Shown piece by piece: positions 4,529 through 61,027 of a DNA stretch of 64,000 bases; the stretch's first letter is position 1, and each line of letters starts with the position of its first letter. Under the pieces are notes generated by a model. It was not told the origin of the DNA. It searched no databases and saw only the letters and a program-made list of their open reading frames with translations. Origin of the DNA: Nitrososphaerota archaeon (GTDB lineage Archaea; Thermoproteota; EX4484-205; JAAOZP01); contig JAAOZP010000004.1 in assembly GCA_011605725.1 (NCBI GenBank), forward strand, positions 160,001 to 224,000, in the 5' to 3' direction. The position numbers and the translations under genes were made by a program.

Positions 4529-4543
4529 AGCGCGCGCGCGCTA
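4529..4543. repeat. GC palindromic junction motif, expanded copy (AGCGCGCGCGCGCTA); first of about 40 copies
   Basis: Read directly; joins two divergent gene fragments. Confidence 0.9.
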
Positions 4544-4944
4544 TTATTGCAAATGATTTTTCACCTAATCCGGATGATTATGAATCAGTGGTTAAGGCGC
4601 TGGGACAGGATTGGATCTCTTGGGTTAATGAGGGCCTACTAGACTTCGCTGAGCCTATGATATACTGGACCGAACCAAAGGATTTTGGAACGATTGTTAG
4701 AAATCTGATGAACAGGATAAGAGATAAGAGTTTTCCAATATATCCTGGTATCTTAGTGTCGAACGACTACGTTATTGAACCTAATAAGGTGATGGAGTAC
4801 GCCAAGAAGTCCATTGATGCTTCAGGTTCTGGAATTACACTGTTCCAGTATGCCAGCTGGTGTGCCTCTCATAGGAGGTCCTTAGGGCTACCTGAGATAA
4901 GGGACTATGATCAAGAACTTATCAGGTTAAGGGAATTACAATAA
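4543..4944 (+). pseudogene. C-terminal fragment of a glycosyl hydrolase-like (GHL10/DUF187-type) protein
   Basis: Frame open from 4543 (IIANDFSPNP...GQDWISWVNEGLLDFAEPMIY); starts at the palindrome with no N-terminus. Confidence 0.65.
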
Positions 4945-5076
4945 CTGACATCATCCTTTAAGTCAAAACATCCATGAAATAACTTGCTATGCTTAACTAG
5001 TGGGGCAAGCCCGGTAAAATAGCAAGATTATCATCTGACAACTTAGCGTGCTTACAAGCTGTGCATCAATCTTCTT

Positions 5077-7089
5077 CTATCTGCACCTATACAATATAAG
5101 CGTCGAATCAGGATTCTTAGCCAAATGAACCTTAAGCCCCTCATCCATGAGTTCCTTACCGGTCAGGGTTCTCTTCTCCCCCGTGTCCAGATCAGTTATT
5201 TCATAATGAGCATCAGGCTGTAGTTCACGAAGCCTGAAGACAGCGTCAGTCAAAGGGCTTAAGCGACGTTTCAGCACTACTACCAGTCCCTCAGCTAAAT
5301 CAGGGCGATCAAGCTGGTACGCCATCCAAGCCTCTTCAGACTGAGTGTAAGGGGTTAGCGGATAATAGTCGCCATAATAAAACTTTCTAATACTTAAGTA
5401 CTGGTTGAGCTTCTTTCTCACCGAGTTGAAAACCGTTTCTCCCCCAGAGATACTTTCTTCAATTCCTAGAGTAAAAACCATGCTTGCGCACATTACACTA
5501 CGGAACGCGTAGTCGTCAGCCTTCGCCATGTTTAAACCTCCTGCTCCGAAAAGCGGTATCCAAAGGAGTAGACCGTAAACATGACACTGGTTTGCAACAG
5601 GCCCGTCTATGAAATCCGTAGACCAAAATGGCGTGCTTCGTCCAATCGTTTCCAAGTCGATTCGACGACCCCCGCTTGCACAATTATCTATAATAAGATT
5701 AGGATGCTTTTGAAGAAGATCGTCCCAGAAAGCGTAAAGCCCTTCCACGTATCTGATTTCAGTAATCCCCTGCCTGTCTTCAGAGTCCGCATTACGCCAG
5801 AACCTTAATGGAGCAATATTAGCGTCATGCCTGTAGCAATCAATATGGAATTCAGCAATCCGATTCGAGATGAAATCCGTGAGGAAGCGGCGCGCCTCAG
5901 GATTACCAAGGTTAAACAGCGCGTCTCCTTCAGCAATCTGGTTCCGACGGCTTTCGAAGAAAACCCATGCTGGATCATTCTTGTCAAAGTAGTGCGGCCA
6001 GCTGAAAACCGTGTCCACACTTTTAATCTTAAGCAGCCAGTTGCAATGCTCACGATACCAGGGCGTATCTTTGCAGACTCGTTCAGGCTCAAACCAGAGT
6101 GAAAGCTTACGCCCAGATTTATGAAGCGTGGCAGCGATTTCTTTAAAGCCCTCCGGATAAAGATCCTCCCTAACCTCCCAGTTTCCCACGTTTTTCCACC
6201 AAGGTTGGCCTCCAAACCACTCCGCATCGATCCAGTAATATTCAACTGGAAGATCGTGATTAATTATTTTCCCTATAGTATCTAAATGGGTTTTTGCAGG
6301 AGTCCCACCCCAGCTTGAGAAAAATACTGGTGCAACTAGTGGTTTACCGTCTACGGAAGGACGGTGGTGAGTGAGAATAAATCGCCGCAACATGTTTTGA
6401 CCACGCATCCAATCCTTGCTCCAGAATAGCAGTAGAATTCGTGGAGACCTGATTTCCTCACCCGGGTAAAGCCTTAGATTCGTAGTCTCCATGCCGGCCT
6501 GCAAACGCAACTCGTTTCCACTGCTACGTTTGAACAGTGCTGCCCACTCGCCAGTCCAGCCGATCGCAAGTATTACGCCTTCCTCCTCCATTTCAATATT
6601 GAAAAACGGTAGGAATTCGCTGGAGGACCGTCCGCCACCGGGTCGAAGCAAGAATTCTTCGTCAAGATTAAGGTCTTTCTGAATAGGCATAAAATCGTCA
6701 ATTGAGGCGAGAGCACCTTTAGCATAATGAAGAGTAAACCGGTTTCTCTGACAATGCATTACGACATCCAGTGCCTGAATGCTCTTGATAATCGGCGTAG
6801 TTTCCACAGAAGCATTCTTAAAGTATAAAACCCATTCTAATGCTGGAAAATCACGATACTCGATTAAGATACATCTTACCTGTAACCCTGTCTCACTATC
6901 GTTATGAAGCATCACGTGTTCAATGCGTTCACCGTCCAGCTGCCGCGTGGCATGCGCGAAATCCCAGTTCCTCAATAGATCTTTAGAAAACCTGCCACCA
7001 TACGTGAATGAGAACGGAGGATCTGTACCGGATATAAACCTGGTTAAAACCCGTTGCACAGCAGCCGTTTCAACAGGAGAAACATTCAT
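5077..7089 (-). CDS. Alpha-galactosidase (GH36-like)
   Basis: FSSWG, YWIDAEW, LWFEPE, YRHDAN, IDNCASGGRRID. Confidence 0.85.
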   Translation of the reverse strand: MNVSPVETAAVQRVLTRFISGTDPPFSFTYGGRFSKDLLRNWDFAHATRQLDGERIEHVMLHNDSETGLQVRCILIEYRDFPALEWVLYFKNASVETTPIIKSIQALDVVMHCQRNRFTLHYAKGALASIDDFMPIQKDLNLDEEFLLRPGGGRSSSEFLPFFNIEMEEEGVILAIGWTGEWAALFKRSSGNELRLQAGMETTNLRLYPGEEIRSPRILLLFWSKDWMRGQNMLRRFILTHHRPSVDGKPLVAPVFFSSWGGTPAKTHLDTIGKIINHDLPVEYYWIDAEWFGGQPWWKNVGNWEVREDLYPEGFKEIAATLHKSGRKLSLWFEPERVCKDTPWYREHCNWLLKIKSVDTVFSWPHYFDKNDPAWVFFESRRNQIAEGDALFNLGNPEARRFLTDFISNRIAEFHIDCYRHDANIAPLRFWRNADSEDRQGITEIRYVEGLYAFWDDLLQKHPNLIIDNCASGGRRIDLETIGRSTPFWSTDFIDGPVANQCHVYGLLLWIPLFGAGGLNMAKADDYAFRSVMCASMVFTLGIEESISGGETVFNSVRKKLNQYLSIRKFYYGDYYPLTPYTQSEEAWMAYQLDRPDLAEGLVVVLKRRLSPLTDAVFRLRELQPDAHYEITDLDTGEKRTLTGKELMDEGLKVHLAKNPDSTLILYRCR

Positions 7090-7239
7090 CCTTACCGCCT
7101 CAGCTTGCAGGAAAGCCCTAACCGGATTTAAGGTTTAACAAGTATCCGCAACCAGACTGCAGCTTGAATAGAAATACGCATCATGAGAAACGGCTGATAC
7201 TGAGGAAGCAAATCCAGCTTTTTGAAAAACCCTAGTTGT

Positions 7240-9966: not shown

Positions 9967-10837
9967 ACATCTTCCACCTCATAATAGGATTCTAAAGAAA
10001 GTTTTTAAACTTTTTTAAGGACGCTAAGCCACTATTCTTCTCATGGAGCCACCTTAACCCTCCGGGCCAGCCTTTACTCGACATCCCAAGGATAAAGCGA
10101 TAATACTCGTTTATTTTGCTCACAGCATAGCTATAATCCTTCCAACGCCACAAGAAGTAGTTTGATACAGCCGCTCGCCTGAATTGACCGACTGTCGTGT
10201 AAAAAGTGGATTCTCCCCTCTAATGACGTTCGATAAGACTGTGATTATCCCAAGTGGATGCGGGCTTACCCTCACGGTATTGGTAAACAACATTAGCGCG
10301 CGCTTTAAGAATCAAGTGTTTCCAACAGTTCTATGTGCACGCGACGTTAACAGTGTATACCGCGTTCTTTGGCCCAAGAATACATGTACTTTGGGACTCA
10401 ATGTCTACACCAGAAGTACTCGTAGCTCTACCTGTTTTAATGCTTGCAACCCTGGTTCACAAGTACCTTATAAAGGAATTGAGCGCGCCGTATTCCAGTT
10501 CTTGGAAATCACGTTAGAGCCCCTGAACACCACAACCATCCTGCGACTCTTCAAGACTATTATTGTAGGTTCGTCAACGCCTCTTGAAGATTTGAGACCG
10601 GAGAACACAATACTATAGGGTTCGCAGCGGTATAGAGCGCATCACGCTACATGTCCACCAACCAGTCCAGGTTAGCAGCTGCTATTATCCTCCGGATAAC
10701 GAACATAATCTCGTCTTCATACTCCAACTCGCTTGTAGCACTGCTAACCTTCATCCTTTTTCAACCTGTTCCTGACTTAGCTCGGGTCTTTCAACGAATT
10801 GATTAACATAGCTAACCCACACCGGTTTTCCCTCGGC

Positions 10838-15596: not shown

Positions 15597-15750
15597 AGCG
15601 CAGAGGATAGAAAGAACTATCTGGGTTTGAGAAAATACGAGTTCCACCAGTTCTAGTATGAGAAAGAGTTTTCTCTTCTGAATGAGTTTTTAAACAAAAA
15701 ATGGGAAATCGTATTCGCGCGCTAAAAGCATTAATAGTAGTTATTATGGC

Positions 15751-17155: not shown

Positions 17156-17358
17156 ATACTGTTGACTGAGGCTTTCAAACGAGATCTCCTCAATTCTTAA
17201 AGAATGGTTTGGAACAGTTTACCTTAAGCCGCATCAAGCGCACTGTAGATGCGCATGCTAAACTTTTAAACAGCAGAGCACGCTCTCCCAGAAGAATAAC
17301 ACCTCTCAGAGCAATATTAAGCACAACCCGCTTAATAAACGGACGCTAGCGTGCGCTC

Positions 17359-19022: not shown

Positions 19023-19277
19023 TTTGAAAAACACGATAAATATTTTCATTCAGGCTCTTCGCTTAAAAAGGGATTCGTTCTTTTCTCCTTGCCGATGCTT
19101 GAAAAAGGTCCGTGACCAGCGTAACCGAAGTATCATCAGCCTATTCCTTATGTAGGGGACTATTTCTTCGAAAGATCCCCGAGAAGGTCGGTAGCGCGCG
19201 CTGCTTTTAATCAACAAATCTTCAAGGACATCAGTTTTTATAAAGCCTTAATAGACTGCTTAAACGCTTGGAAAAAG

Positions 19278-20195
19278 TTGACAAGCCTGGTTGAAACAGT
19301 GCTAGAAATAGTCGTCTCCATTTCCCTAGGGATAGTTCTAAAGCGGCTCTATATTCTCAATGAGTCTATCGGCAGAAAATTGCTGTCACTATCCCTAAAC
19401 ATTCTCCTCCCCCTTATAGTGTTCCACTCCTTTGTGACCGTCAAAATATCTATGAATGAGGCTCTTCTGCCGGTGGTCGGGCTTCTCATAAACCTCTCGC
19501 TCTTAGCCATTGCATATTTAGTGCTGGAGAGTATTGAAATGAGTAATGCTCGAAAAGGAGCTTTCCTACTTGCATGCAGCACTCTGAACATCGGCATAAT
19601 TGGATTGCCTTTCATAAGCCTATTCTTTAATACGGAGGGTGTTGCAACCGCTTCTCTAATAGATATAGGTAACTCCATATACGTTTTCGCCATCGCCTTC
19701 CTAGTCGCCTCACGCTTCAATCCCTCGAAGAGCGAAAGATCTCTGAAAAGCAGCGTTAAAAACCTGTTAGCACAGCCATACATCTTATCTATAATAGCTG
19801 GATCGATTGCCAACCTATTAAGATTAGATTTGCCCCCGCAAGCCAACGAATTAATAACTTTTATATCATTGGTTAACGCTGTAATGATGCTTATTGCAGC
19901 AGGGGTTTTCACCAGGCTTCCAAGGAGAAGCCTTTTACGGGAAATATTCTTATCAATATTTGTAAAAATATTGATTGGAAGCCTAATAGGCTTCGCTTTT
20001 GCAATCTTGCTTCAACTTACTCCGCAAGCAACGGGAGTCATGATAATCGTTGCTTCTCTACCCCCTGCCTTCATGACTCTTGTACATGCTAGTGCTGAAA
20101 ATCTCGACTTAGAGTTTGCCAGCACATTGTTGGGCTCAATGCTCGCCATAGGCATTCCTGTAATAGTTTTCTATGGCTTATTCTTCTCACTCTAA
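19278..20195 (+). CDS. AEC (auxin efflux carrier) family transporter
   Basis: NIGIIGLPF, about 10 TM, SLPPA; bracketed by motifs at 19192 and 20194. Confidence 0.85.
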   Translation: MTSLVETVLEIVVSISLGIVLKRLYILNESIGRKLLSLSLNILLPLIVFHSFVTVKISMNEALLPVVGLLINLSLLAIAYLVLESIEMSNARKGAFLLACSTLNIGIIGLPFISLFFNTEGVATASLIDIGNSIYVFAIAFLVASRFNPSKSERSLKSSVKNLLAQPYILSIIAGSIANLLRLDLPPQANELITFISLVNAVMMLIAAGVFTRLPRRSLLREIFLSIFVKILIGSLIGFAFAILLQLTPQATGVMIIVASLPPAFMTLVHASAENLDLEFASTLLGSMLAIGIPVIVFYGLFFSL

Positions 20196-20370
20196 GCGCA
20201 CGCTATCTGCAACATTAGACACTATGAGGACAAGCCGGTTCAGCAGCAGTGGAAGGCCGAGTCAAAAACGTTCTTAAGGCTTTTTATAAATCTTGAAGGC
20301 AGGGTTCTTAACTGAAGCTGGAATTGGAATCCGCCCGATTCCTAACCATCATAAGTTTTAGCGCGAGCCA

Positions 20371-20443
20371 ACATATAATTATTCACGCTTCTGAGTAAAA
20401 ATTTTCCGCATTTCCAAAATACTATATGGGTGCTTAAAAATAC
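20371..20443 (-). repeat. Diverged inverted copy of the promoter region at about 28893-28965
   Basis: Reverse complement TATTTTTAAGCACCCATA-TAGTATTTTGGAAAT...AAGCGTGAATAAT matches 28893 onward. Confidence 0.8.
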
Positions 20444-20589
20444 TTGATTAGCACGTGCTTTCGGCTGGGTGAGATAATAATCGTGTCTTTCAATCTTTCC
20501 TTTGGATTGACCTCAAGATGGATAAGCGCGCGCCGTCTTTCAGATTTCCTTGTTGAACCTTCTTTTGAAAGAGTTAAGTATCAGTACAG

Positions 20590-21888
20590 GTGTTAAGTAA
20601 TTGTATGGGGTGTAAAAAGCCATCTTTGAGAGTTCTTCCAGTCATAGTGTGTAGGGAGGAACAGGTTAGAGATATAGATTTTCAGAAAGGGATGGAGGAG
20701 CTGAGGAAGAATATTTCAACCGAGGTTCGAATTTTGAAGGAGTGTATTATCAACGGTGAAAAGGATCTTGTTAAGCTTGAAGAACGTGTTTCTGAAGCCG
20801 ATGTTATTCTCCTTCTTAAACCAGGATTAGGACTAGGAAGCTGTGTTGTCAAAATCGTTGAATCCAACCTTCCCGTGATTCTCTTCAACAAGGAGGGTTC
20901 GGTTTGGACTCCACTCGACGCTTTGGAATATGTTTATCCCAGAAACAATGTTTGGGTTGCTGCGGACTACGAGGACTTAGATTTTCGGCTGAAAATCTTA
21001 GAAGCAAGGAAAAACATAGGCAGTACGAAGCTGCTTGTTTTAAACGCGGATTATCCCCACTGGGAAAGATGGCTCATGCGCGTCCCCGGGGGATTAAACA
21101 CGATTAGGGAGAGGTTTGGAATAGAGGTTGAGTATGTTCGGAGCGAGGAAGTCGTGGAGAGGTGGCGTGGGGTCGAGGAGGAAAAAGTAAAGAAGGTTGC
21201 CGAGGAATGGATAGGGAATGCTGAGAAAATAATTGAGCCCTCGAGAAGCGATGTTGAGAAAGTTTCCAGACTGTATCTGGTGATGAAGGATCTTCTACGT
21301 GAAAAAGGTGCTCAAGGATTAACGATGGCTTACGGCGAAGATCCTTTACCTGTTCCCTGTTTCGCATACGTCAAGCTTAGGGATGAGGGTGTTCCAGCTG
21401 CGTGCGAGGCGGATATCATCTCGCTCATCACAATGGTTATTTTGCATTATGTTACGGGTAAACCCAGCTTCATGGGGAACTTAAGACATGTTGATCAGAA
21501 CAATAACACGCTCATGATTAGTCATTGCGTCGCGCCGACTAAGATGGCTGGCTATGATGAGCCAGCGCTTCCCTATGTTTTAAGAAGTCAGCACTGGGGT
21601 CCGCCGGCTGGCGTTTTAAGCGCCTTCGTCCCGATGAACACCAGCCAAGAAGTTACAGTCTGCCGCCTGGACGGTGAGTTGAAGAGTATGCTGATTACAA
21701 GAGGAGTTATTGAAGAATGCAGGGATCTAGAGGAGTATTGTCGCAACACGGTTCGCATAAAGGTCAGTAACGTTAAGAAGCTCATCCATAGCACATCGGG
21801 AAACCATCATGTCATGGTTTACGGCGATCATAGGGAAGAAATAAGGGAACTGAATAAATTGTTCGGAGTCGCTACAATTGAAGTATGA
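20590..21888 (+). CDS. L-fucose/L-arabinose isomerase-like protein
   Basis: PCFAY..L.DEGVPAACEAD, SHC, CRNTV, GNHHVMVYGDH. Confidence 0.8.
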   Translation: MLSNCMGCKKPSLRVLPVIVCREEQVRDIDFQKGMEELRKNISTEVRILKECIINGEKDLVKLEERVSEADVILLLKPGLGLGSCVVKIVESNLPVILFNKEGSVWTPLDALEYVYPRNNVWVAADYEDLDFRLKILEARKNIGSTKLLVLNADYPHWERWLMRVPGGLNTIRERFGIEVEYVRSEEVVERWRGVEEEKVKKVAEEWIGNAEKIIEPSRSDVEKVSRLYLVMKDLLREKGAQGLTMAYGEDPLPVPCFAYVKLRDEGVPAACEADIISLITMVILHYVTGKPSFMGNLRHVDQNNNTLMISHCVAPTKMAGYDEPALPYVLRSQHWGPPAGVLSAFVPMNTSQEVTVCRLDGELKSMLITRGVIEECRDLEEYCRNTVRIKVSNVKKLIHSTSGNHHVMVYGDHREEIRELNKLFGVATIEV

Positions 21889-22194
21889 AGTGATGTCGAA
21901 ACAGGTGTAAGGAGAAGGGTCTCGGCAATCTTTCAGCTGATAGAGACACGGCTCTCCATAGCTTCATGAAGCTTGGTTTCTGGTCTAAGCACCCTTGTTC
22001 CCTGCGAGAGAATATGGAAGAAGCAGTTAAGGGCGATTTGGTCAACGATGCTGAAACGGGGAAGAGGTTTAACAGGATGCGGAAACGATACTTAAAAGTT
22101 GAGAAGCAATGTTTTCCAACTTTAGGCATGACAAGTTTAGCGCGCGCTGACTCCAGATTTAAAAGCTTTAACTTTCCATCAGGAGTTTAGAAGC

Positions 22195-23319
22195 ATGAGT
22201 CCACTTGGGAAGGTGCATGTAGGAGTAGTAGGCGGAGGCTTCGGGTCTGTTTTCAAGTGGCATAGTCATCCGAATTGCATTGTGGAAGCAGTATGCGACC
22301 CTGTTCCTGAAAAACGTAAGCGTTTAATGCAGGTTTACAATTGTGAAAAGTCGTATGAGAATCTTGAGGAGCTTTTGCAGGACCGGAGGGTTGAAGCGGT
22401 CGCCCTCTTCACTCCCGCGCCCCTTCACGCTGAGCATGCTGTCGAGTGTTTGAAATCTGGGAAACACGTCTTATGCGCGGTTCCAGCCTGCATGACGCTG
22501 GAGGAGGCAAGTATGCTTCTCGAGACTGTTAGGGAGACAGGTTTGAACTACATGATGGCTGAGACTAGCTGGTATCATCAGGCAGTAATCTCGGCGAGAA
22601 AATGGTTTAAAGAGGGAAGGTTTGGCAGAATATTCTACACGGAGGCTGAATACTATCATCCAGGATTAGCGTCGCTATTCTTTGACAATAATGGCAATAA
22701 GACTTGGCGCTACGGGTTCCCCCCTATGCTTTACCCTACGCACTGCACTGCATACCTAGTTGGAGTTACTGGAGAGAAGATGGTTAGGGTTTCCTGCGTA
22801 GGATGGGGAGACGATTCTCCAATTCTCAAGAATAATGCTTACAACAATCCTTTCTGGAACGAGACCGCGTTTTTCATAACAGATAAGGGTAATGCCTTCA
22901 GGGTGGCCGTCTACTGGAACGCTCCCGTCGGCCCTTGTGAAAGAGGACAGTGGATTGGAGAGAAAATGAGTTTCTTCGAGCCTCACCCTAATGGCACTAA
23001 ACATATTGTCTGGAAGGCTGGAAGCAGCCCTTTAGACTTGCCGCAGATGGTAAGCTATGAACAGGCAGAATGGTGGAGGACAGATATTCTTCCAGAGTCT
23101 TTGCGTCATCCGAGTGGACACGATAATTCTCATAACTTCATAATTCATGAGTTCATTCAGTCCATTGTCGAGAAGCGTTCTCCAGCTGTCGGAGTCTACG
23201 AGGCTCTGGCCATGACTATTCCAGGCATAATTGCTCACCAATCGGCCTTAAGAGGAGGAGAACAGATGAGGATCCCAAGGCTTGAGCCTGGGAGCGCGCG
23301 CTTTCACGCCAGTTTCTAA
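22195..23319 (+). CDS. Gfo/Idh/MocA family oxidoreductase
   Basis: VGVVGGGFG, TPAPLHAEH, GKHVLCAVP, YPTH; last codons run through the motif at 23292. Confidence 0.9.
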   Translation: MSPLGKVHVGVVGGGFGSVFKWHSHPNCIVEAVCDPVPEKRKRLMQVYNCEKSYENLEELLQDRRVEAVALFTPAPLHAEHAVECLKSGKHVLCAVPACMTLEEASMLLETVRETGLNYMMAETSWYHQAVISARKWFKEGRFGRIFYTEAEYYHPGLASLFFDNNGNKTWRYGFPPMLYPTHCTAYLVGVTGEKMVRVSCVGWGDDSPILKNNAYNNPFWNETAFFITDKGNAFRVAVYWNAPVGPCERGQWIGEKMSFFEPHPNGTKHIVWKAGSSPLDLPQMVSYEQAEWWRTDILPESLRHPSGHDNSHNFIIHEFIQSIVEKRSPAVGVYEALAMTIPGIIAHQSALRGGEQMRIPRLEPGSARFHASF

Positions 23320-26766: not shown

Positions 26767-26934
26767 GGCGAGGGTAAAGCGCTACTGATCTTCGGCCCGC
26801 ATTATGCAAGCCTTGGAAGCATAGAGTACTTCTTGAAGAGAAGAATCGATGTTGAGGAAATGATGAGCAGGTTCCCACTTGCATGATTTTGCCATAGTCA
26901 AAACTGGTAGGAAAGTTTAGATTTGACAAACTAT
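26759..26934 (+). repeat. Diverged duplicate of the 3' end and downstream DNA of the FAD oxidoreductase (40692-40871)
   Basis: Direct nucleotide match, e.g. GCGCTACTGATCTTCGGCCCGCATTATGCAAGCCTTGGAAGCA. Confidence 0.92.
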
Positions 26935-27117: not shown

Positions 27118-27528
27118 ATGGCTGTCGAGAAGCTTTCACTAAGATTGGCGAGGACGATCTTCTATCTTAAAGGGTTTGTCTGGCTCCTCAAGAGGAGAAG
27201 AGCATACTCGATGCAAGACGTCTTAAACCTCTTCTACATGGATTTTCTAAAAATAGATGATAAGCATATCGAAGTCGTAAAGCTCGATGAGAACGAGCTC
27301 ATAACTAGGTGTAGCAATCCATGCCCTATTTTAGAGCTTGCTAAGCGTCTCAATCTAGACACTAAGTATGTGTGTAAAGAGGTTTCTGAACCAGTCTGCA
27401 AATTCGTATTGAACAAGCTTAATCCAAGACTGGTGTTTGAGAGAAACTATGAACACATAAGACCACATGTTGAGAGCTGCGAGGAACATATATATTGGAG
27501 ACGGGGTGAGAAACAAAGCGCACGCTAA
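27118..27528 (+). CDS. Hypothetical Cys-containing protein (CSNPCP, C..SEPVC, CEE)
   Basis: ORF; last codons and stop overlap motif copy AAGCGCACGCTA. Confidence 0.6.
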   Translation: MAVEKLSLRLARTIFYLKGFVWLLKRRRAYSMQDVLNLFYMDFLKIDDKHIEVVKLDENELITRCSNPCPILELAKRLNLDTKYVCKEVSEPVCKFVLNKLNPRLVFERNYEHIRPHVESCEEHIYWRRGEKQSAR

Positions 27529-27745
27529 ACAAAGAATCATTGAGAAAGCACTAGGCTAAGTCAGAACTGATCCGGAGCGCGCGCTAAACTAGTTGCATGG
27601 ATTCTTGAGCATGTCGGCAGATCTGAGTTTCGAAGTTTTAAAGCATCAAGTTTAGTTAAAGCGAATTCGAGTATTTTTAAAAAAGTAGAATCGATTTTTA
27701 CATTTTCTTAAGAGAAAAGTTTTTATAGTCTTTATAGTCTTTATA

Positions 27746-28406: not shown

Positions 28407-28487
28407 TGATTAAAGCAATTATATGCTAAACCCATCGTTCTAAGTAAACTTTATCATGATTTTTATCGCGTGCTGTTTATTCCTCAA

Positions 28488-28865: not shown

Positions 28866-28967
28866 CAGCGCGCGCGATCATTCCACGTGCACTATTTTTA
28901 AGCACCCATATTAGTATTTTGGAAATACAAAAACTTTTTTATTCAAGCGTGAATAATCACATGCATA

Positions 28968-30662: not shown

Positions 30663-31134
30663 AAATGGTAAAGCAGGAACTCTAGTTCAGTATCCTTCAG
30701 ATACTATGATTTCGACGGTAACAGGCCTTCACTTGTCTTTCCACCCTAGTGGTGTGAGCCATTGCGGACAATCAATCCTAAGACATCTTTTGACATCCGT
30801 ATGGACGAGCTCATAAAGACGTTACTCCCTTGATGGTGCGCGCTATTCCGTTTTTGCGATGTCTCCATGCTTTAAATAAACATGAGAATCCACAATCATA
30901 TTTTCTCAATAAGAATGCTATGTAAGAAAAATATTTAACCTTTTCTTAGACACGAAGCAATATGCGATTCTTAACCAGCTAAAGTAAATTAGTAGCCTTG
31001 GCGCGCTACAAGTATGGCAAACAGCATTATAAGTTATATGCAAGAAAAGAACATAGATCCGTAAAGAGGTGAAAATTCTAGAGTTACGCTTAGCTAACGA
31101 AATTGTAGAAAAACAAACACAGAATAAATTTTAT

Positions 31135-32185: not shown

Positions 32186-32197
32186 TAGCGCGCGCGG

Positions 32198-32848: not shown

Positions 32849-32885
32849 GAGCGCGCGCGTGCAGGCGGAATGCTTATAGCTCGAC

Positions 32886-33620: not shown

Positions 33621-33645
33621 TATCTGGTGATCAGAACGCGCGCTA

Positions 33646-34005
33646 TGGTAGCTAAGCCGTAAACTGCGCCATAGAGGAAAATGCCGGTAAGACCCTTTCG
33701 TTTTTGGACCTTTATGCGTGCCCAAAAAGCTGGAAGTCTGATCTCTATTATCATGGCAACACCCATAAGGACCATGGCTGGACCTGCGACTAGTTCAAAG
33801 AGCGGCATGTACTGAGATACAAAATTGCCCAGTACGGAGGCGACAGTGCCAATCACAGAGAACACTGCGATTAGGCCTAGAGCGCAGGCAACTCCTCTTG
33901 GAACCGCCTTTTCCAAGGAAGGTTTAGTTCCTATATAATATGATATATAGCCTGGGAGCATTGGAAAGCCGCATGGAGAAAAAGCGCAAATATACCAGCA
34001 GTGAG
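33646..34005 (-). pseudogene. CcdA/DsbD-type cytochrome c biogenesis protein, internal fragment
   Basis: TAGIFAL-SPCGFPMLPGYISY...LYGAVYGLA; both ends are motif copies; one frameshift. Confidence 0.8.
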
Positions 34006-34092
34006 GAGCGCGCGCGCCGCAACAGCAGCGATGATAACTCCTAGAAGGATCAACATTTTCGGTTCATACTTCCATTTCCTTAGCATTCCAAC

Positions 34093-34871: not shown

Positions 34872-35087
34872 TAGCGCGCGCCGGGATTCAAGATCCTTCC
34901 AAATCCCCCCAACCCCCTCGGGAACCCTTCAGAGTGCCCTCTTCATGGTGGCGCGCGGTGAGGCCCCACCAGAGCGCAAGCTACATTCAGCGTAGCTTAC
35001 GCATAGTCATCAAAAACCCATTTCAAGCAGCCTTGTATTAGCGAGGTAAAGTTAATTAAGCCTTGCCGCATAATTGAAGACAGAAGA

Positions 35088-35573: not shown

Positions 35574-35586
35574 CACATGAAACCCT

Positions 35587-35884: not shown

Positions 35885-35885
35885 A

Positions 35886-36149: not shown

Positions 36150-36154
36150 AGACT

Positions 36155-36250: not shown

Positions 36251-36620
36251 GTAGCGCGCGCTTTCGAAGCTTATAAGGCCCTTATTAACTATGTTAGAGA
36301 GAGGCTGCTCCCTCTTCGCTTTTAACCTTCATAAACAGGCTTTTGACAGATAAAAAACGCTTAAAGCGCGCGCTCCTCCTCTTAAAAAACTGCTTCAAGA
36401 AATTCTGAAGCAATTAACAGGATAGAATTTAATTTTAGAATCTGTCGTTATTCAGTTACATTTTAAAATTTTAACTATGAATTATTAAAGCGCCGTTTTT
36501 AAGGCTTTCTTAGCGCGCGCACAGCAGGCTTTGCTCACAATACCCATTTGACACCATAGTTTTCTCTAGGCTTTCGTAAAAAGCTTATAGACCTAAACAT
36601 GTATACTAAACTGAAGCTGG

Positions 36621-39156: not shown

Positions 39157-39694
39157 ACAAGCCGCTACCAAGTTGCATGAATCTCGGAACATATTGATGA
39201 ACTGGCTGAGAAAAAGAGCCTTCACTCCGGGTAAGCTTATTATGAGGGTAGAGAACAAGAAATAGACTAAAGCTAAATATAAAGGAGGCCGCATTAATTG
39301 ATATGATGGAACACGTGGAGAAGCCTAAAGAGGCGATTAGAATACGTGTGCTAGTTTTAGTAACTGTGATATAAAGTATACTTTTTGACTTAGCACGTGG
39401 TAGTATAACTCTGAATTTCAGTGGCGGCTTAGTTCGTGCAATTTTCATCATGTCTCTAGGCACCGTGTAGAATAAATTGGCAATTTTAGCCCCCTTGACT
39501 GTAGTTAGCAGCCTGACTTTATTGTTTATCGACATATGTACGGATGGCGTCGGCATGGTCCGGTTCAGCGTGATTCACACCACGCGCGCGCTAGTCCATT
39601 CCACTTCTTTTCTTTAGAAAGAAGTCTTCAGTTTGCAAGAAAAATTCGAAAAAACCTTATATTATACGCTATGCTCCCCCTATTTTTCCTCGGG

Positions 39695-40819: not shown

Positions 40820-40915
40820 TTTTGCCATAGTCAAAAAAATGGTAGGATGAAGTTTCAATTCGACAAACTATGGCACCCTATTGTTGAAACCCCTCAGTAA
40901 TTGCCGATTAGTACG

Positions 40916-40927
40916 TAGCGCGCGCTA
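40916..40927. repeat. Perfect consensus palindrome TAGCGCGCGCTA (also at 42675, 43782; 14-bp version at 44682)
   Basis: Read directly. Confidence 0.95.
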
Positions 40928-41148
40928 AGCAAGGTTCCGAGAATGAGGTAATGAGTCAGTAGGCCGAAGGATTCGAACCCTACTAATTAGAAGCAGTCTT
41001 TTTTATCAAAATCCCTTTCGTTGATCAAAGATTGGGTTGTCATCTTTGTTTGAACTCTCAATATGGATTACAACTAGGCTTAATATGTAGCGTGCGCTAG
41101 TGGAGAAAATATATAAGAAACCTAAAGGAATTACAATATTGACCGAAT

Positions 41149-41649
41149 GTGTTTGATAGGACGCAGTATGTTGTAGAGAAAAAGTTGTTAACAGTGTTAA
41201 CGTTAGGGGAGACCTATGACATCAAGGATGTGAACGGGAACCTGTTGGGCTACATTAAAAGGAACTCAAAATTTTGGTTTGAGGGAATGGACGGATCCCG
41301 CCAAGGTGAAATCCGGGATGTGGGTGGTGCATACGAGGTTTACGATGCTCGAAATCAGCTTCGAGCTACTGTAGTATGGGCTGGGGGACTGGGGCTCCGA
41401 AGTAGTAAGTGGCAGATGAAAGATCCTCAGGGCCAGCAATTGGCCATAGCCGAGGGTGACTTTTTGGGACGTAATTATCGCATCCTAGCGCCAGACGGAA
41501 GCGCCATAGCCCAGATACACAAGAAATGGGCATCCACGAGCTGGCAATCCTATCGCATCGATATTTCACGCCAAGGTTTCGATCCCTTCTTGATCTTGAG
41601 TTACGTTGTAGTCGATATTTCACAACAAGTGACGGTGTACTACCCCTGA
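41149..41649 (+). CDS. LURP-one/scramblase (tubby-C-like) family protein
   Basis: Repeated YDIKDVNGNLLG / YEVYDARNQL / YRILAPDGSAIAQIHKKW, YRIDI. Confidence 0.75.
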   Translation: MFDRTQYVVEKKLLTVLTLGETYDIKDVNGNLLGYIKRNSKFWFEGMDGSRQGEIRDVGGAYEVYDARNQLRATVVWAGGLGLRSSKWQMKDPQGQQLAIAEGDFLGRNYRILAPDGSAIAQIHKKWASTSWQSYRIDISRQGFDPFLILSYVVVDISQQVTVYYP

Positions 41650-41852
41650 CCGATTTAGCTACAAGCAGAGGAAAACCTCTTTGAATGTCAGGGAACCAGA
41701 TGCCTCCAGCTCGCACCTGACCGTTGCAGAGAGCTTGGACTTTAACGACGCCATGATTCCTTCTGTTATAGCGCGCGCCTAACGTCAAAGGTACGCGAGT
41801 CCAACTAGAGCGTGCGTATGGAGATATTAAAAGCCAAAAAGATGATTCAAAA

Positions 41853-41960
41853 CTATTCCTTGTCATGGTCAACCTTGACTTGGCCGAGAGCCTTCTCAAG
41901 CATTATGCGTTGCTCAATAGATGCAACAAGCTTACGTGTAAACACCGCAGCGTCAGGATT
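41853..41960 (-). pseudogene. ppsA: PEP synthase 3'-end fragment C
   Basis: [35 protein letters not shown]. Confidence 0.85.
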
Positions 41961-41983
41961 TAAGCGAGAGAACGCGACTGTTG

Positions 41984-42428: not shown

Positions 42429-42857
42429 TATTAAGCTTTATGATACGTTGCTACTTCAAATACTGCGTCGGAACACTTTACGATGCTTATGCCATGCGCA
42501 TCGGTGGACCAAGCGAGACCGTAGGTCACATGGCGGTTGCACGCGCTCGCTACAATCATTCACCGAGACTAATTATATAAGCGTCAAGGGTCGGGTAGGT
42601 CCCTGCCGGGGTCTGTAGCGCACGCTAACAGCCTACCCGGATAGAAGTGAAGCATTAGAACTCATAATAATCTGTAGCGCGCGCTATCTCTGCCAAGGAG
42701 TATAGCAAGCTGTACAGAAAAATTTAGAAAGCGAATTCTCGTGAGAGCACGCGCTATTTTAAAAAGTCGGTTAATTCAGGAAAAATATACCACCGGCATT
42801 ATTCTGAAACTGCTTAATTCAAACTGTTTTATTTTTATCTTATCTCCAGCACGCTAC

Positions 42858-43482: not shown

Positions 43483-43883
43483 CCATACTTATATTTTTCT
43501 CTCCTGGGACTGGTGCAGAACCTGTCAAAAGCACCACAAACCATCTATGTATGGTTTAGCTCAGCCTTTCTTCTATAACAAGGCAGGGATTTGACACGAG
43601 TTTGTTTTCCGATCATTATCCGCTTAAACGAAGGCGTTTGATTGGAAGTAGGCTGAGCGTCTAAAAAGCAGCCCCCAAGATTCCGACTACTATTGCGACT
43701 ACACCGATTAGTGCTGAAACCCTCTTAGTCATTGACAAGCCTCGTTAAATCCTTCCCTATAAGGGGGTACGCTGGGTAAAATAGCGCGCGCTATACTATC
43801 TTGGGAAGCCCCACCCTTTAACGAACCTTTTTATTAGCTTAGGAGTTATGTTTTTAAGTCTCTGAAGAAATCAGTAATGCGAG

Positions 43884-44074
43884 ATGGGGAGAGCGACTCT
43901 GGAGCAGGTTTACCGTGAGATCCGGCTTCTTAGGGGGATTTGAACCGTTTGGAGAAGATGCTTATCCCCGAGGCAGAGCCTGAGGAAGATGAGGTAAGGG
44001 CAGTAAGAAGGGGCAGGAAAGAATTCCGGGAAAAGCGATGTGTCGAATGGAGCAAAATCAGGAAAAAGATTTAA
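43884..44074 (+). pseudogene. RelB-like antitoxin, frameshifted in a G-run
   Basis: MGRATLEQVYREIRLLRG / DLNRLEKMLIPEAEPEEDEVRAV. Confidence 0.7.
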
Positions 44075-44075
44075 C

Positions 44076-44338
44076 TTGGCTTTTAAAATCGTCTTAACGC
44101 ATCAAGCACTCAAAAGCTTCGAAAAGCTCCCCCTAAAGGTAAAAAACGCGTTTCAGAGGCCTTAGACGCTCTGGTTCAAACACCGGTTCCGTTCAGAAGC
44201 TTCGACGTTAACAAACTTAAAGGCTTTAGAAACACCTATAGAATAAGGATAGGCGACTGGAGAATAATCTATGAATATGATTCGAAAGCAAGAGTAATAA
44301 TCGTCCATGACATACTGACAAGGAAGAAAGCATACTGA
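44076..44338 (+). pseudogene. RelE toxin, frameshifted in an A-run
   Basis: FKIVLTHQALK / FDVNKLKGFRNTYRIRIGDWRIIY..RKKAY*. Confidence 0.82.
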
Positions 44339-44579
44339 TTTTCAATATTTCAAGCAGTGGATTCTTCAGTCTACCCTGAGTAAGAGTATCTCTTGGCTAT
44401 GACCTGCTTTCCTTTCCATATCTTTAGCTGTATGACATGTTCAGGTGTTACAAAGAATCAGCCCTTGGCTAATTATTGCTAGGCTAAGTACAGGTAAGTC
44501 AGACAATTCCTATGAGAAAAGAATTTAAAGGCTAGGACCCTATTTAGGGTAACGAGCTGCTATGTCGATTCCGCGCGCT

Positions 44580-44683
44580 AAAATATACGAAGTAAAAGCA
44601 AGAAGCGTAATGCATAAAACCAAAATTCTTGGTGCGGATTGGGGTATAAACTATTATCGTGGTTGTACCCATGGGTGCATTTA
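44580..44683 (+). pseudogene. About 100-bp N-terminal fragment of SplB-like radical SAM gene
   Basis: KIYEVKARSVMHKTKILGADWGINYYRGCTHGCI; cut inside CxxxCxxC; motif copy on each side. Confidence 0.75.
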
Positions 44684-44781
44684 GCGCGCGCGCTATCCTT
44701 CAGCAGGCGAAGGGCAATTTCACTTAACGTCCTGCGTATAAAAGAAGTTGCCGAAGGCAATTTGGGCGAAGCGCGCGTTAC

Positions 44782-44928
44782 CTAGTCAAGGGCTTTCTCA
44801 AGCATAATCCTTTGCTCAATAGATGCAATCAGCTTACGTGTAAACACTGCAACATCAGGATTGATTGAGACTGAGTCGATGCTGTATCTAACTAGGAACT
44901 CGTTAAACTCCCGATGGATATTTGGGGG
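44782..44928 (-). pseudogene. ppsA: PEP synthase 3'-end fragment D
   Basis: [47 protein letters not shown]. Confidence 0.85.
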
Positions 44929-45049
44929 CTACTTAAACAGCTCTAGGAAGTCCTCCTTAAGCAATTCTGATTTTGAATTCATAGCTGCTTCTACCCTCCA
45001 GCGCCCTTACTATCTTCGGGATAAGCATCTTCCACCTCTCGCCATTCAT
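44929..45049 (-). pseudogene. Internally deleted paralog of the 354-aa ORF at 52297-53361
   Basis: MNGERWKMLIPKIVRALEGRSSYEF aligns without gaps to MDAERRELLANRLAKELSERYGCEF; ends ELLKEDFLELFK* vs EFLKEDFPELFK*. Confidence 0.7.
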
Positions 45050-45162
45050 TGTGAAACGGGAAACTTAGCTCGGAAGAGGCGCAGAGCGGGCTCTATGAAA
45101 TGGGTGAAGAATCAAGGTGCGAAGAGCCGATAAAGTTTATATAGTAAGAAAAAGGTTACACA

Positions 45163-45378
45163 TTGAAGATGGAGTTTACAGTAATCATAGAGAGGGATGA
45201 AGACGGTTATTATGTGGCAGAGGTCCCTGATCTAAAAGGTTGCTACACTCAGGGAAAGACATTGGAAGAAGTTATGAGGAACATTAGAGAAGTTATAGAA
45301 CTTTGTTTAGAAGCTGAAAAAGGAAAAGAGTTTCCAAAGAAAGAACTAATAGGAGTTCAAAAGATAGAGATCGAGTAA
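45163..45378 (+). CDS. HicB antitoxin
   Basis: ERDEDGYYVAEVPDLKGCYTQGKTLEE. Confidence 0.92.
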   Translation: MKMEFTVIIERDEDGYYVAEVPDLKGCYTQGKTLEEVMRNIREVIELCLEAEKGKEFPKKELIGVQKIEIE

Positions 45379-45410
45379 AATACTGTCTTCATCAAGCGGG
45401 GGAATCTTTT

Positions 45411-45650
45411 ATGAGGCTTGTTCCGGTTTCCGGCGAAGAATTAGTGAAAATCCTCTATAAGAAAGGTTTCATAATAAAAAGGAGGAAGGGAAGCCATGTT
45501 CAACTGGAGGATGCTGAAGGAAGAAGAGTAACAGTGCCAATACACCCGGGAAGAGTTATTGGAAGAGGGCTGTTGAGAAAAATATTGAGAGACGCAGAGA
45601 TATCTATAGAAGAATATGAAAGGCTTAGACAAGGAAATACTGTGACTTAA
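45411..45650 (+). CDS. HicA toxin
   Basis: RRKGSHVQL..RVTVPIH...GLLRKILRDA. Confidence 0.92.
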   Translation: MRLVPVSGEELVKILYKKGFIIKRRKGSHVQLEDAEGRRVTVPIHPGRVIGRGLLRKILRDAEISIEEYERLRQGNTVT

Positions 45651-45707
45651 GGAGTAGAAGAGCTTATTCGATCTTCCGAGGTAGCCTAACCTTTATAGCG
45701 CGCGCTT

Positions 45708-45829
45708 CTATACGGGTATTCTCTATGTCTGAGTATGATGTGGCTACCAGTCTGATGGTCCACTTCATAGCCGATCTTGGACAGGGCCTTTACAACTTCT
45801 AGGCCGGAAACAACGGGAAGCTTAGACAT
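45708..45829 (-). pseudogene. HicA toxin truncated by the palindromic motif
   Basis: MSKLPVVSGLEVVKALSKIGYEVDHQTGSHIILRHREYPYR, then motif 45696-45707. Confidence 0.85.
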
Positions 45830-46055
45830 GAATCTCCACAAGCTCTTCCTCTATCGATGGAGGTATCGGCTCACCGTGTTTCTTCAGGCTTTCCAAGTAG
45901 CCTCGAATAGCATCCTTTATGTTTTCAATGGCTTCTTCCCTAGTCTTCCCCTGAGAAATACAGCCAGGCAACTCGGGAACCTGGGCCACGTAGAAACCAT
46001 CTTCATCCCGCTCCAGCAGTACTCTAAACTTCATGGAATAAGGTCTAGGGAACAA
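45822..46055 (-). CDS. HicB antitoxin
   Basis: ERDEDGFYVAQVPELPGCISQGKTREEA. Confidence 0.92.
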   Translation of the reverse strand: MFPRPYSMKFRVLLERDEDGFYVAQVPELPGCISQGKTREEAIENIKDAIRGYLESLKKHGEPIPPSIEEELVEIHV

Positions 46056-46223
46056 AATATTTAAGCATTACCAAAAAGACCTCCGGCGCGTGCTGGAGGA
46101 TGCAGTACCCGATGACAGTAGGCCGGAAAACTAAGAGTAATAAAATTTGGTAATCTCAATGCTAAAAAAGCATTTGACGGGGTAAAACTTATATTTTTGG
46201 GTTAAAAATTGAAAAATGGGTAA

Positions 46224-47095: not shown

Positions 47096-47176
47096 TAGCG
47101 TGCGCACAACTCTAACAACAGACGATAAAGGAGAGATAGATGTATATCTCTCTAACTATGGTTCTAGCGCGCGCGA

Positions 47177-51077: not shown

Positions 51078-51173
51078 CTCTAACAGGAATAGTCTTCACT
51101 CAGGCTTATTAGCTTTAACAGTAAGAGCCGGGGAAAATTAAATAGAATTGAGAAAAGCGGGTTTTGAAAAAAA

Positions 51174-51361
51174 TTACTCTTCGTCTGGATCGGGCAGGTC
51201 CCAGTCGGGGTCAGTTTTGACTTGACCTAAAGCTTTCTCAAGCATGATGCGTTGTTCAATTGATGCAACCAGCTTGCGTGTGAATACCGCGGCATCAGGA
51301 TTGATTGAGACAGAGTCGATTCCAGCTCTGACAAGGAACTCTGTAAACTCAGGATATATTA
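51174..51361 (-). pseudogene. ppsA: PEP synthase 3'-end fragment E
   Basis: [61 protein letters not shown]. Confidence 0.9.
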
Positions 51362-51478
51362 GGATGCTTATTTTAACATTTGAGGAGTCTTCACCAGGAA
51401 TTCCAAGATGCATGTTTCCTACTTGGGAAAAGGTTAAAATTAAGAATTCCGTGTCTTGATTGAAGAGGCTCGGTTAGG

Positions 51479-52134: not shown

Positions 52135-52296
52135 CTATTCGTCAGAGTTGCTCATAAGGGCTTTCTCAAGCATTATGCGTTGCTCAATAGAAGTAACAAG
52201 CTTTCTAGTGAACACCGCAGCATCAGGATTAATAGACACGGAGTCGATGCCTGCTCTAACAAGGAACTCAGTGAACTCAGAGTAAACACTTGGGAG
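52135..52296 (-). pseudogene. ppsA: PEP synthase 3'-end fragment F
   Basis: [52 protein letters not shown]. Confidence 0.9.
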
Positions 52297-53361
52297 CTAC
52301 TTAAACAGCTCAGGGAAGTCTTCCTTGAGGAACTCTATTTTTTCAAGCGGAAACTTATAGAGTCTGGAGTGCTTATCTACTATTATCTTACCACCTTCGA
52401 TTTTTTCTTTCAAAATCTCGCGCTCAACCACCTTTTCGCTTTCTATTACTTTCGTTCTGACCTTTTCAGTGACAAGCTTGTAGTCAGCTAACCTAAGCTT
52501 GTAGCCGTCCAGATTATAGACCTTGTGTCTAGGATCCTTTAACGATTCTATCAATTCATCTCGCACGAAATCCTCGTATTTCTTGTCGAATTCCCGGTCT
52601 CTCTTCAACGGCCACTTGCAGATAACCCGGGACCAAATTCTTTCTCTAAACGGATCATCTCTAAATAGCTTCGTTTCCTCATAACATTTCCTCCTTTCCT
52701 CGCTCGGAAACCATTCAGTCTTCATCCTCTTTAAATGTTCCGTTAATGCTTCAATCCTCTTTAGGACCTCGTTGATTATCTGCTCATCATTCATTCCGAC
52801 TATATCGAACTTAAGACTAACTTCAAGTTCTGAGAAGTCGCATTTCGCCTCCCGTTGACTTACGTTCCATCTTTCTAGCGAGCTTCGTAGGGACTTCAAA
52901 AAGACCTCGATATCCTTTATCACGGCTGGCATTATCCTAGCAGCCTTCATCCTGTCCTCCCTCTCCGAAAGCATCACTGTCATTGAGTCTTCATTTGAAA
53001 AAAGGAGGAGCAACGGCCATAACGCATAGTAATACTTGCAGAGAAAATGAAGGTCAAAACCCTCCATCTCTATTTCTATTTGATCCCTTGAGATTGTTAC
53101 TGTCTCAACTGAGATAGGATATGGATCTATCCAATCATCAGGCCATTTTATAAACCTCTTTCCCTCAAAGTATACGTCGTTTATATCTGCCTGTGTATAT
53201 GTATACATTAGGCCCTGTCCTTTGAAATAATCCCTGTTAGGCCTCCGACAGATCCAAAAATCCCTGCGAGACACCACACCAAATTCGCATCCATACCTTT
53301 CACTCAATTCTTTCGCAAGCCTGTTTGCCAAGAGCTCCCTTCTTTCAGCATCCATGTCCAC
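52297..53361 (-). CDS. Hypothetical protein (candidate immunity or cargo gene)
   Basis: 354-aa ORF; start abuts the upstream stop, and its own stop abuts ppsA fragment F. Confidence 0.7.
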   Translation of the reverse strand: MDMDAERRELLANRLAKELSERYGCEFGVVSRRDFWICRRPNRDYFKGQGLMYTYTQADINDVYFEGKRFIKWPDDWIDPYPISVETVTISRDQIEIEMEGFDLHFLCKYYYALWPLLLLFSNEDSMTVMLSEREDRMKAARIMPAVIKDIEVFLKSLRSSLERWNVSQREAKCDFSELEVSLKFDIVGMNDEQIINEVLKRIEALTEHLKRMKTEWFPSEERRKCYEETKLFRDDPFRERIWSRVICKWPLKRDREFDKKYEDFVRDELIESLKDPRHKVYNLDGYKLRLADYKLVTEKVRTKVIESEKVVEREILKEKIEGGKIIVDKHSRLYKFPLEKIEFLKEDFPELFK

Positions 53362-56891: not shown

Positions 56892-56974
56892 TAGCGCGCG
56901 CGAGCCTTCCGAACCTCCTATGCACTTTCCAGCTCGGCGTTTGCGATCACCTACTTCTTACTATGCAGCACCCA

Positions 56975-57987: not shown

Positions 57988-58095
57988 TAGCGTGCACTAG
58001 GAAGAGCCTAAGGAGCCCCAGTAGCAGGTTTTATCATGTTATAGAAACAGGTTTGTTGAAAGCTTAAATCCAGGTACAGGAGTGTCTACTCGGTC

Positions 58096-60246: not shown

Positions 60247-60605
60247 GCTGAAAGAATAGCTTCATCTCCCCTTAGTTTTTCCGTCGCAAGTGTTTTTCAC
60301 GTCTGAGAAGGATGTTTTTCATTATTCCGGCTTCTTTTTGATGTTTTTAACTATCTCATCTAAATCGAGAGCATGTGAGCTCAAAATCCAGATTATATGG
60401 GTGTGTCTGCTTCCTACGTGTTTTCTTCCACTGATAAGACGGTGGAATGCACAGATGTATGTACTACCGGCTTTTAAACTTCTTTTTCAACTTCGATTTT
60501 ATAACTTTAGGAGGCTTTGGACATTTTCCTCGAAGAAATGCGTAGCTCTTTAATAGAAAATTTTAAATATTGCTTTAATCAAGACTTCTATCGGAGGTGG
60601 AAAAC

Positions 60606-60710
60606 ATGTCAGCACCTCAAGAGTTCAAGTGTCCCAACTGCGGAGCTACTTTCAAGACTAAAGATGAACTGGATAAGCACCTAAAGGGTTGCAAGCCCAA
60701 GAAGAAGTAA
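60606..60710 (+). CDS. 34-aa C2HC zinc-finger microprotein
   Basis: MSAPQEFKCPNCGATFKTKDELDKHLKGCKPKKK*; GGAGGTG RBS and TTTAAATA upstream. Confidence 0.8.
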   Translation: MSAPQEFKCPNCGATFKTKDELDKHLKGCKPKKK

Positions 60711-60734
60711 TTCTATCCTAAGGTTAATTATTAT

Positions 60735-60762
60735 TTTTTCTTTTCTTTTCTTTTCTTTTCTT
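60735..60762 (+). terminator. Oligo-T (TTTTC)n archaeal terminator
   Basis: TTTTTC(TTTTC)4 just after the microprotein stop. Confidence 0.55.
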
Positions 60763-61027
60763 GTATGAAGGTTTTAAGAGGAGTTATGTCTTTCTTCTGC
60801 GCGCTACCAGTTTAGATTGAAAGTTCAGCTAACGTTACAATGATGATGCATGCTATACCGGATGCCAGTACTGTTCAGCGCGTGCTATAATGTGCATCGG
60901 AGCCTTGTAAGCCGGATTTAAGCAGCCATCGCATTTCTAGGCTTAATCTAAGTGTTTTCAGCCGGTGGTTAACATGCGGGCGCGCTAGGTTCTTGAAGAG
61001 TACTTAACACTGTTCGAGAAAAGCTTA

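Follow-up and report, generated by a model that had tools for sequence, protein, structure and literature searches.

Alternating GC linkers as probable scars of a sequence-defined DNA end-joining route in Brockarchaeota, with a stand-alone PriS-like primase as candidate writer

We describe a short alternating GC motif in a 64,000-nucleotide stretch of DNA (the window, part of contig JAAOZP010000004.1, here C4) from the 2.23-Mb metagenome-assembled genome (MAG) of a Brockarchaeota archaeon, here G000, and conclude that it is very probably a real, heritable and still active scar of DNA joining. The host assignment agrees with the window proteins, whose close homologues are named Candidatus Brockarchaeota. 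Judged against the donors of the flanking sequences, the motif is a linker, that is, new DNA placed between two ends that previously lacked it, and it is found where deletions of 38 bp to kilobases are closed, where distant loci are joined and on both sides of captured pieces of about 50-300 bp. We are highly confident that end joining with a written linker accounts for the motif and, with moderate confidence, regard a stand-alone PriS-like primase encoded elsewhere in the genome as its probable writer.

New DNA at junctions

Traceable donors in the same genome, in the sister species and in same-species strains all lack the linker. Within G000, alignments with intact paralogues, which do not carry the motif, break off 0-4 bases inside it, and captured pieces of 50-300 bp, up to 99% identical to other loci, are bracketed by two motifs. 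Upon alignment of G000 with its sister species G002, 69 of 371 alignment ends fell on the motif versus 4.2 expected (maximum 10 in 500 shifts), bearing out the link to junctions proposed in a preliminary description of this DNA; at only 2 of these 69 ends was the motif present in both species.

Comparison with assembled contigs of other sequencing runs from the same species revealed deletions between points that are motif-free in the window: run X1 joins position 41397 to 41453 and, farther on, 44290 to 44406, and run X4 joins 43858 to 46180; a GC linker of 8-10 nt closes each gap. Elsewhere, 491 different letters replace window positions 34008-34017 in another strain, and about 1.07 kb of different DNA replaces 42601-42674 in run X1. 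Both sides could be traced at a 2.7-kb deletion bearing A(GC)4T, where the outer A and T are both absent from the donors, and at three further junctions: a 38-bp deletion, a 950-bp deletion and a junction between loci separated by 8 kb. A 1.4-kb deletion seen in another lineage, with donors 100% identical, is closed by (GC)7A. Inserts at joins measure 7-15 nt, and no more than one shared base is informative. A 12.8-kb contig from an independent 2025 run covers positions 27396-40202, decayed orthologous copies of scars are common to different species, and the same scars are present in the finished genome of an isolate, Thermofilum adornatum.

The motif had been proposed to be either the product or the substrate of a dedicated process of recombination, transposition or end joining. 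Since the donors lack it, the first half of that proposal stands and the second does not, and end joining becomes a better fit than site-specific recombination or transposition.

Form and placement of the motif

All 40 motif starts listed earlier lie within 3 bp of a 12-mer match with at most three mismatches. The window holds 3 exact matches, 10 with one mismatch and 24 with two, and these 37 compare with 1.5 expected from shuffles (largest shuffle 5). The (GC)4 core is intact at 25 sites, in agreement with the earlier count, and a genome-wide count against an order-2 Markov model gave a 31-fold excess of this 8-bp core. Cores are clustered in islands across the G000 genome, and the exact 12-mer is restricted to the larger genomes of the genus.

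The original wording, a fixed 12-bp palindrome, was too rigid. The motif is a GC run of variable length with rule-bound flanks, usually A(GC)3-6T; counts of A(GC)nT for n = 3, 4, 5 and 6 were 59, 88, 20 and 2, versus 9, 2, 0 and 0 for the reversed control, and run length changes in steps of two, centred on (GC)4. Outside the 12 bp the sequence logo was flat, showing neither a longer consensus nor an att hairpin. The reported scarcity inside intact genes was also seen genome-wide: only 9 of 189 runs of (GC)4 or longer lie within open reading frames (ORFs) of at least 200 aa, compared with 104 for random positions near these runs, and such ORFs make up 69.5% of the genome. An Rfam search returned no match in the window or at the primase locus described below, and PADLOC returned none.

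A one-base rule at donor ends

At 76 ends with a donor identity of at least 88%, the first new base follows the last donor base: G after A (22 ends), A after T (16), C after G (13) and G after C (about 7), with the reservation that chance matches can move ends between these classes. An added A was preceded by T in 16 of 16 such ends (p ~1e-9). The rule is seen on both sides of the linker, and the 12-mer is thus the outcome of two ends that both finish in T. A two-base match to the linker was not favoured, as TA precedes the GC run in 5 of 22 A-ends, which is background level. The one-base rule suggests that the base order may be set by a protein without a nucleic-acid template. Among donor ends in T, 11 of 16 end in TT, above base composition, which may hint at a break preference at TT.

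A stand-alone primase as candidate writer

The preliminary description found no recognisable enzyme in the window, and our best candidate indeed sits on another contig: a PriS-like primase of about 270 aa (P0002, G000:C7:379026-379796). Its gene lies downstream of dinB and a radA paralogue (radA2), forming a dinB-radA2-primase cluster divergent from tfb; it is the second PriS-like gene in G000 and has no adjacent PriL. The predicted fold is that of PriS (pLDDT 90), with a fold match to PolDom structures, and the family retains the invariant motifs DxD and SG..H and a third Asp, the PriS-like signature of the archaeo-eukaryotic primase (AEP) superfamily. The protein scores far below the PriS equivalog cut-offs. 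The family is small: 48 representatives fall below E 1e-30, with names that point to Brockarchaeota and Bathyarchaeia.

We favour this primase for its occurrence with scars, the abundance of scars around its homologues and the clade-dependence of the flanking base. Within the genus, the gene is present in G000, G002, G016, G007, G006 and G012 and broken in G008, which amounts to 7 of 8 motif-bearing genomes, G009 being the exception; it was not found in the nine genus genomes with 0-3 perfect motifs. One close relative without the primase, G010, holds 64 decayed or perfect sites, 3 of them perfect, as expected after loss of the gene. Outside Brockarchaeota, 78 loci around primase homologues contain 102 (GC)4 sites in 488 kb versus 2.7 expected, about 38-fold (some loci overlap, and distinct sites number 92), and housekeeping priS loci, taken as control, hold 0 in 92 kb. 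Among 401 Bathyarchaeia genomes, 7 of the 14 that carry the gene or a remnant of it showed a genome-wide excess versus about 23 of 387 others, a comparison whose p value is overstated because kin are not independent. The GC run is flanked by A at 51 of 72 ends in Brockarchaeota and at 0 of 30 in two other enzyme clades (mostly T), the clades being taken from a quick tree; around the primase gene of G465, the flank is AC at 12 of 24 ends.

Across lineages, neither a conserved partner gene nor space for a cis RNA was found beside the primase, and radA2 goes with it in Brockarchaeota alone. The gene often lies near an integrase or on integrative elements, and a search of viral contigs found no homologue. 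At G000:C12:18263-18857, radA2 and the primase gene are present a second time in broken form, starting at a linker, and pieces of the primase gene were also found in G002, G006, G007 and G016.

Sites in the window

The sites are listed in Table 1. About 22 of 40 lie at an end of homology or at a strain polymorphism, the remainder having no usable homologue. At the protein level, truncation was a noisy test owing to frameshifts, with homologues usable at 6 of 41 sites. Of the genes named earlier at motif breakpoints, the calls of oppC, GHL10 (weakly, E 0.006), GH2, an internal ccdA/DsbD piece and cutA were confirmed, and those of DUF433, SHOCT, ppsA, hicA, the methyltransferase, the MutS-like gene and the restriction-modification gene were not confirmed with the fragments tried. 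The OppC-type gene is N-terminally truncated: its homology to a 296-aa paralogue stops at 4530, with 122 aa missing.

Table 1. Linkers and related features in the window
Feature	Position	Context
(GC)6 linker	4530..4541	truncated OppC-type permease gene (4018-4527, minus strand) joined to GHL10-like fragment (4546-4941, plus strand)
A(GC)4T linker	10295..10304	motif match
Short or decayed linker	15713..15724	begins module common to relatives; matches start 15720-15723
Decayed linker	17348..17357	precedes internal gene fragment with 215 aa missing
Linker	19193..19202	left end of transporter module; G013 match spans 19202-20195
Decayed linker	20195..20204	right end of the same transporter module matched by G013 (19202-20195)
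Two decayed linkers	20359..20459	bracket 71-bp captured piece 20372-20442, an 85% copy of window 28893-28963
(GC)4 linker	20526..20533	start of isomerase module; G009 match begins 20535
A(GC)4T linker	22139..22148	left of oxidoreductase module; G003 match 22161-23279
A(GC)4T linker	23293..23302	right of the same oxidoreductase module matched by G003 (22161-23279)
Two linkers, 59 bp apart	27517..27585	motif match
(GC)4 linker	28868..28875	motif match
Decayed linker	30834..30845	motif match
Linker	32188..32195	GH2 fragment (left, minus strand) joined to internal piece of a gene (right, plus strand) that encodes 424 aa in G002
Linker	32851..32858	other end of the piece from the 424-aa G002 gene; G002 donor lacks the motif here
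Two linkers	33634..34017	bracket internal CcdA/DsbD fragment
Linker	34874..34881	paralogous donor on C4 lacks the motif
Three linkers (36253, 36365, 36512)	36253..36521	bracket two short pieces; G002 match starts 36374
(GC)4 linker	39584..39591	motif match
Two linkers	40917..41098	exact 12-mer at 40916, decayed one at 41088
Motif-free 55 bp	41398..41452	deleted in same-species strain (run X1), 9-nt linker instead
Linker	41771..41778	G002 match begins 41778
Three linkers, 59 and 70 bp apart	42617..42755	motif match and comparison with run X1
Exact 12-mer	43783..43792	G013 match ends 43782
Motif-free 115 bp	44291..44405	deleted in run X1, 8-nt linker instead
Three linkers	44569..44780	motif absent from seven paralogous copies of the stretch to the right of 44780
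Linker	45697..45706	G002 and G013 matches begin 45705
Two linkers	47097..47174	first one cuts cutA gene
(GC)4 linker	56894..56901	motif match
Decayed linker	57988..57999	motif match
Decayed linker	60877..60886	motif match

The 432-aa ORF at 20590-21888, bounded on its left by a linker, is distantly like sulfoquinovose isomerase (E 3.5e-15, far under the cut-off). Short repeated coding pieces occur in the window at 35579-35663, 41784-41962, 44780-45130, 51104-51392 and 52156-52344, and on C4 at 38.2, 59.7, 69.8 and 70.9 kb; the family matches the final 60 residues of an ORF of 802 aa on C4 and has no Pfam match. An internal 200-bp repeat (88%) links 40681-40884 with 26747-26948, and contigs from three runs connect 40836 back to 27001. 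Beyond the window, the densest cluster (G000:C9:60500-74000; 21 motifs in 20 kb) adjoins tRNA-Thr and contains pieces copied from beside other tRNA genes. Another array (L161:767-1750) has at least eight linkers about 65 bp apart and a CRISPR-like look, and is made of unrelated pieces of 50-60 bp.

Discussion

Our observations can be accommodated in a simple scheme. Each broken 3' end would be extended by a few nucleotides running into alternating GC; two such (GC)n tails, being self-complementary, would anneal in variable register, after which gaps would be filled and ends ligated. The writer may be the PriL-less stand-alone PriS-like primase-polymerase, a step we propose less firmly than tailing and annealing. 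Selection would remove joins that fall inside needed genes, leaving scars to accumulate in accessory islands, where they would later decay by transitions. Taken jointly, written-linker end joining with this primase as the writer is a reading to which we give slightly less credence than to the primase alone, a little above even.

Several observations weigh against this joint reading. The link to the primase is a correlation only, and its clade-specific flanks are confounded with host lineage. In the complete genome of T. adornatum (G105), no member of the primase family was found, even with a broadened profile, although it bears 22 perfect A(GC)4T scars (control, 0); G009, G389, G395 and G455 are likewise scar-rich without the primase, possibly because they are MAGs or through loss of a mobile gene, and G503 and G142 retain only remnants. 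Conversely, G023, G463, G495 and loci L316-L320 carry the gene without a motif excess, the genes of G006 and G012 look intact while their scars are mostly decayed, and the proteins of G000 and G016 differ from the rest of the family in the motif that follows the third Asp. Furthermore, about 14 of 76 ends break the one-base rule, mostly at lower identity. The mismatches between gene and scars may reflect scarred DNA being imported, a mobile gene being lost or recently gained, or inactive enzyme clades.

These discrepancies lend weight to an alternative in which linkers are written by another enzyme, be it PriSL in an altered mode, a Thermofilum-type primase-like protein of 300-450 aa, DinB or an unrecognised protein, and the primase is a passenger of the islands or a helper. 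Besides the scarred genomes without the gene, this alternative draws on the properties of PriSL, which performs terminal transfer, anneals 2-4 GC pairs and makes GC-biased insertions in vivo (PMC12019639), and on a second primase-like family common to T. adornatum and G000. Yet PriS is universal and the scars are patchy; the Thermofilum-type protein is widespread, being present in 20 of 23 Thermofilaceae, complete genomes free of scars among them, and, as it does not track the scar there, is a weaker candidate than the stand-alone primase; and a passenger would not be expected to predict the flanking base by clade or to follow the scar across unrelated hosts. We consider a different writer less likely than the stand-alone primase. 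The second primase-like family (G000:C7:146131-147045, equivalent to L377:3131-4045; C1:1195-2535, L378; T. adornatum L371:1153-2343) has no Pfam match and is common among thermophilic archaea, including genomes free of scars, which makes it a weaker candidate as well. Of its copies, one in G000 follows a gene for a KaiC-like ATPase and that of T. adornatum lies between two tatC genes. About 36 intergenic (GC)4 scars of the A-flanked type occur in T. adornatum, a cultured isolate (e.g., L351-L353), and one scar-bearing Bathyarchaeia genome (L115, G389:C92) has a split operon for non-homologous end joining (NHEJ) comprising LigD, Ku and PolDom.

Less probable still is that free palindromic oligonucleotides, or telomerase-style copies of a short RNA or DNA template, are captured at breaks via one-base microhomology. 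Identical junction sequences are what this explanation predicts, occasional tandem linkers occur (3 and 14 cases of extended forms), and the modal length of 8-10 nt is like the generally known length of primers. However, pairing predicts two-base linker matches, which remain at background, the run length reaches (GC)9, and neither a reverse transcriptase (RT) in the genus nor a conserved RNA beside the gene was found; the explanation overlaps the protein-written linker and differs from it only in the origin of specificity. A linker templated by an RT was rejected since PF00078 is missing from all 17 genomes searched. An extra ligase was discarded as well, two ATP-dependent ligases being present in motif-rich and motif-poor genomes alike, and no Ku was found in the five genomes searched.

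That the motif is a pre-existing site, used by a site-specific recombinase, as an integron-like att site or as a target duplicated by a transposase or Cas1-like enzyme, would agree with its palindromic form, with pieces captured between two copies and with arrays spaced about 65 bp apart. Donors and ancestral alleles are motif-free at both deletion ends, which excludes a pre-existing recombination site and a target duplication; empty sites contain no copy of the motif, nothing is conserved outside the 12 bp, length varies, and tyrosine integrases do not track the motif (G016 has none, G010 five). We regard this origin as highly improbable. Captured pieces were also considered as defence spacers and rejected: 19 of 69 matched, those matches being chromosomal and about 10 of them internal copies, while the other pieces were not searched against viruses. 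An artefact of library preparation, amplification or assembly, or a regulatory or methylation-linked repeat of HIP1 or repetitive extragenic palindromic (REP) type, might be suspected because the genome is a MAG and the sites are intergenic. Junctions nevertheless recur in runs from 2017 to 2025, are shared between species in decayed form and are present in a finished isolate, the sites are not conserved between relatives, and genes are cut mid-way, leaving this explanation almost no probability.

Comparison with known systems sets the motif apart: it lacks the defining properties of HIP1, att sites, target duplications, Ku-LigD NHEJ and defence-associated reverse transcriptases (DRTs). The earlier likening to HIP1, qualified by the tie to junctions, proved apt. 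Both are short GC-rich palindromes far above chance; HIP1 of cyanobacteria is conserved by selection in coding and non-coding DNA (PMC5861425), whereas the present motif shuns intact genes, is conserved neither in coding DNA nor between relatives and is newly made at breaks. Arrays of captured pieces with a short repeat between them, and gene-sized modules bounded by a repeat, recall CRISPR loci and integrons as generally known, but here there is no att hairpin, leader, fixed spacer length or adjacent integrase or Cas1, and the repeat is written rather than duplicated.

In its working, the proposed route appears closest to the end joining of Sulfolobales by PriSL, with which it would share a PriS-fold enzyme, tailing followed by short GC annealing, and repair of double-strand breaks with indels. 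In Sulfolobales, the replicative PriSL acts, with PriL limiting, through terminal transfer and annealing of 2-4 GC pairs, leaving mostly 1-2 bp indels in microhomology-mediated end joining (MMEJ) and polymerization across discontinuous templates (PADT) (PMC12019639; PMC3333859). Here, in contrast, an accessory paralogue without PriL is implicated and the insert is a stereotyped alternating stretch of 7-15 nt obeying a one-base rule; linker joins do not show the microhomology and 1-2 bp insertions typical of PriSL-MMEJ. The replicative PriS is present in scar-rich and scar-free genomes alike. In its chemistry, the closest analogue may be the protein-dictated alternating synthesis of Drt3b, a possible precedent for the one-base rule. 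DRT3b and DRT7 are reverse transcriptases whose protein-templated synthesis yields free, toxic DNA in phage defence (PMC13213688; bioRxiv 10.64898/2026.04.18.719102). The likeness would lie in the making of DNA whose alternating or palindromic sequence is defined with no nucleic acid as template; the difference is that here no RT is present (0 of 17 genomes), the linker becomes part of the chromosome at joins, and a primase is the candidate enzyme.

Other routes also add nucleotides to broken ends. In Ku-LigD NHEJ an AEP polymerase does so, and our candidate matches the PolDom fold, but no ligase or Ku gene lies beside the primase gene, and the nucleotides added in NHEJ have no fixed sequence. 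TdT adds nucleotides at random, Pol theta copies neighbouring DNA, and telomerase, whose register likewise depends on the end base, works from an RNA template and caps ends; the linker, by contrast, is a defined sequence that joins ends.

To our knowledge, how archaea without Ku rejoin broken ends is an open question. The scars record an end-joining route with a product of defined sequence, which none of the repair routes compared here yields, and a literature search, itself incomplete, returned no account of the motif or of this primase family; if our reading is true, the route is one absent from the literature searched. They also point to one small protein with an exact prediction, namely the base added for each end base, clade by clade, and a cultured organism, T. 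adornatum, bears the same scars. Should the reading hold, the primase would be one of very few enzymes known to determine a DNA sequence in the absence of a template. More boldly, a mobile single-gene primase could be a universal end joiner, attaching a protein-dictated self-complementary GC tail to any ends without homology, driving deletion, shuffling and foreign-DNA capture in Brockarchaeota, Bathyarchaeia and Thermofilum, and representing the first non-RT enzyme with a protein-encoded sequence output; we offer this wider view tentatively and lean against it at present. If true, written-linker joining would provide a datable marker of rearrangement and suggest a tool for homology-free DNA joining, and it would explain why one Brockarchaeota lineage has mosaic islands and perhaps why its genomes are larger (2.0-2.3 Mb versus 1.2-1.8 Mb).

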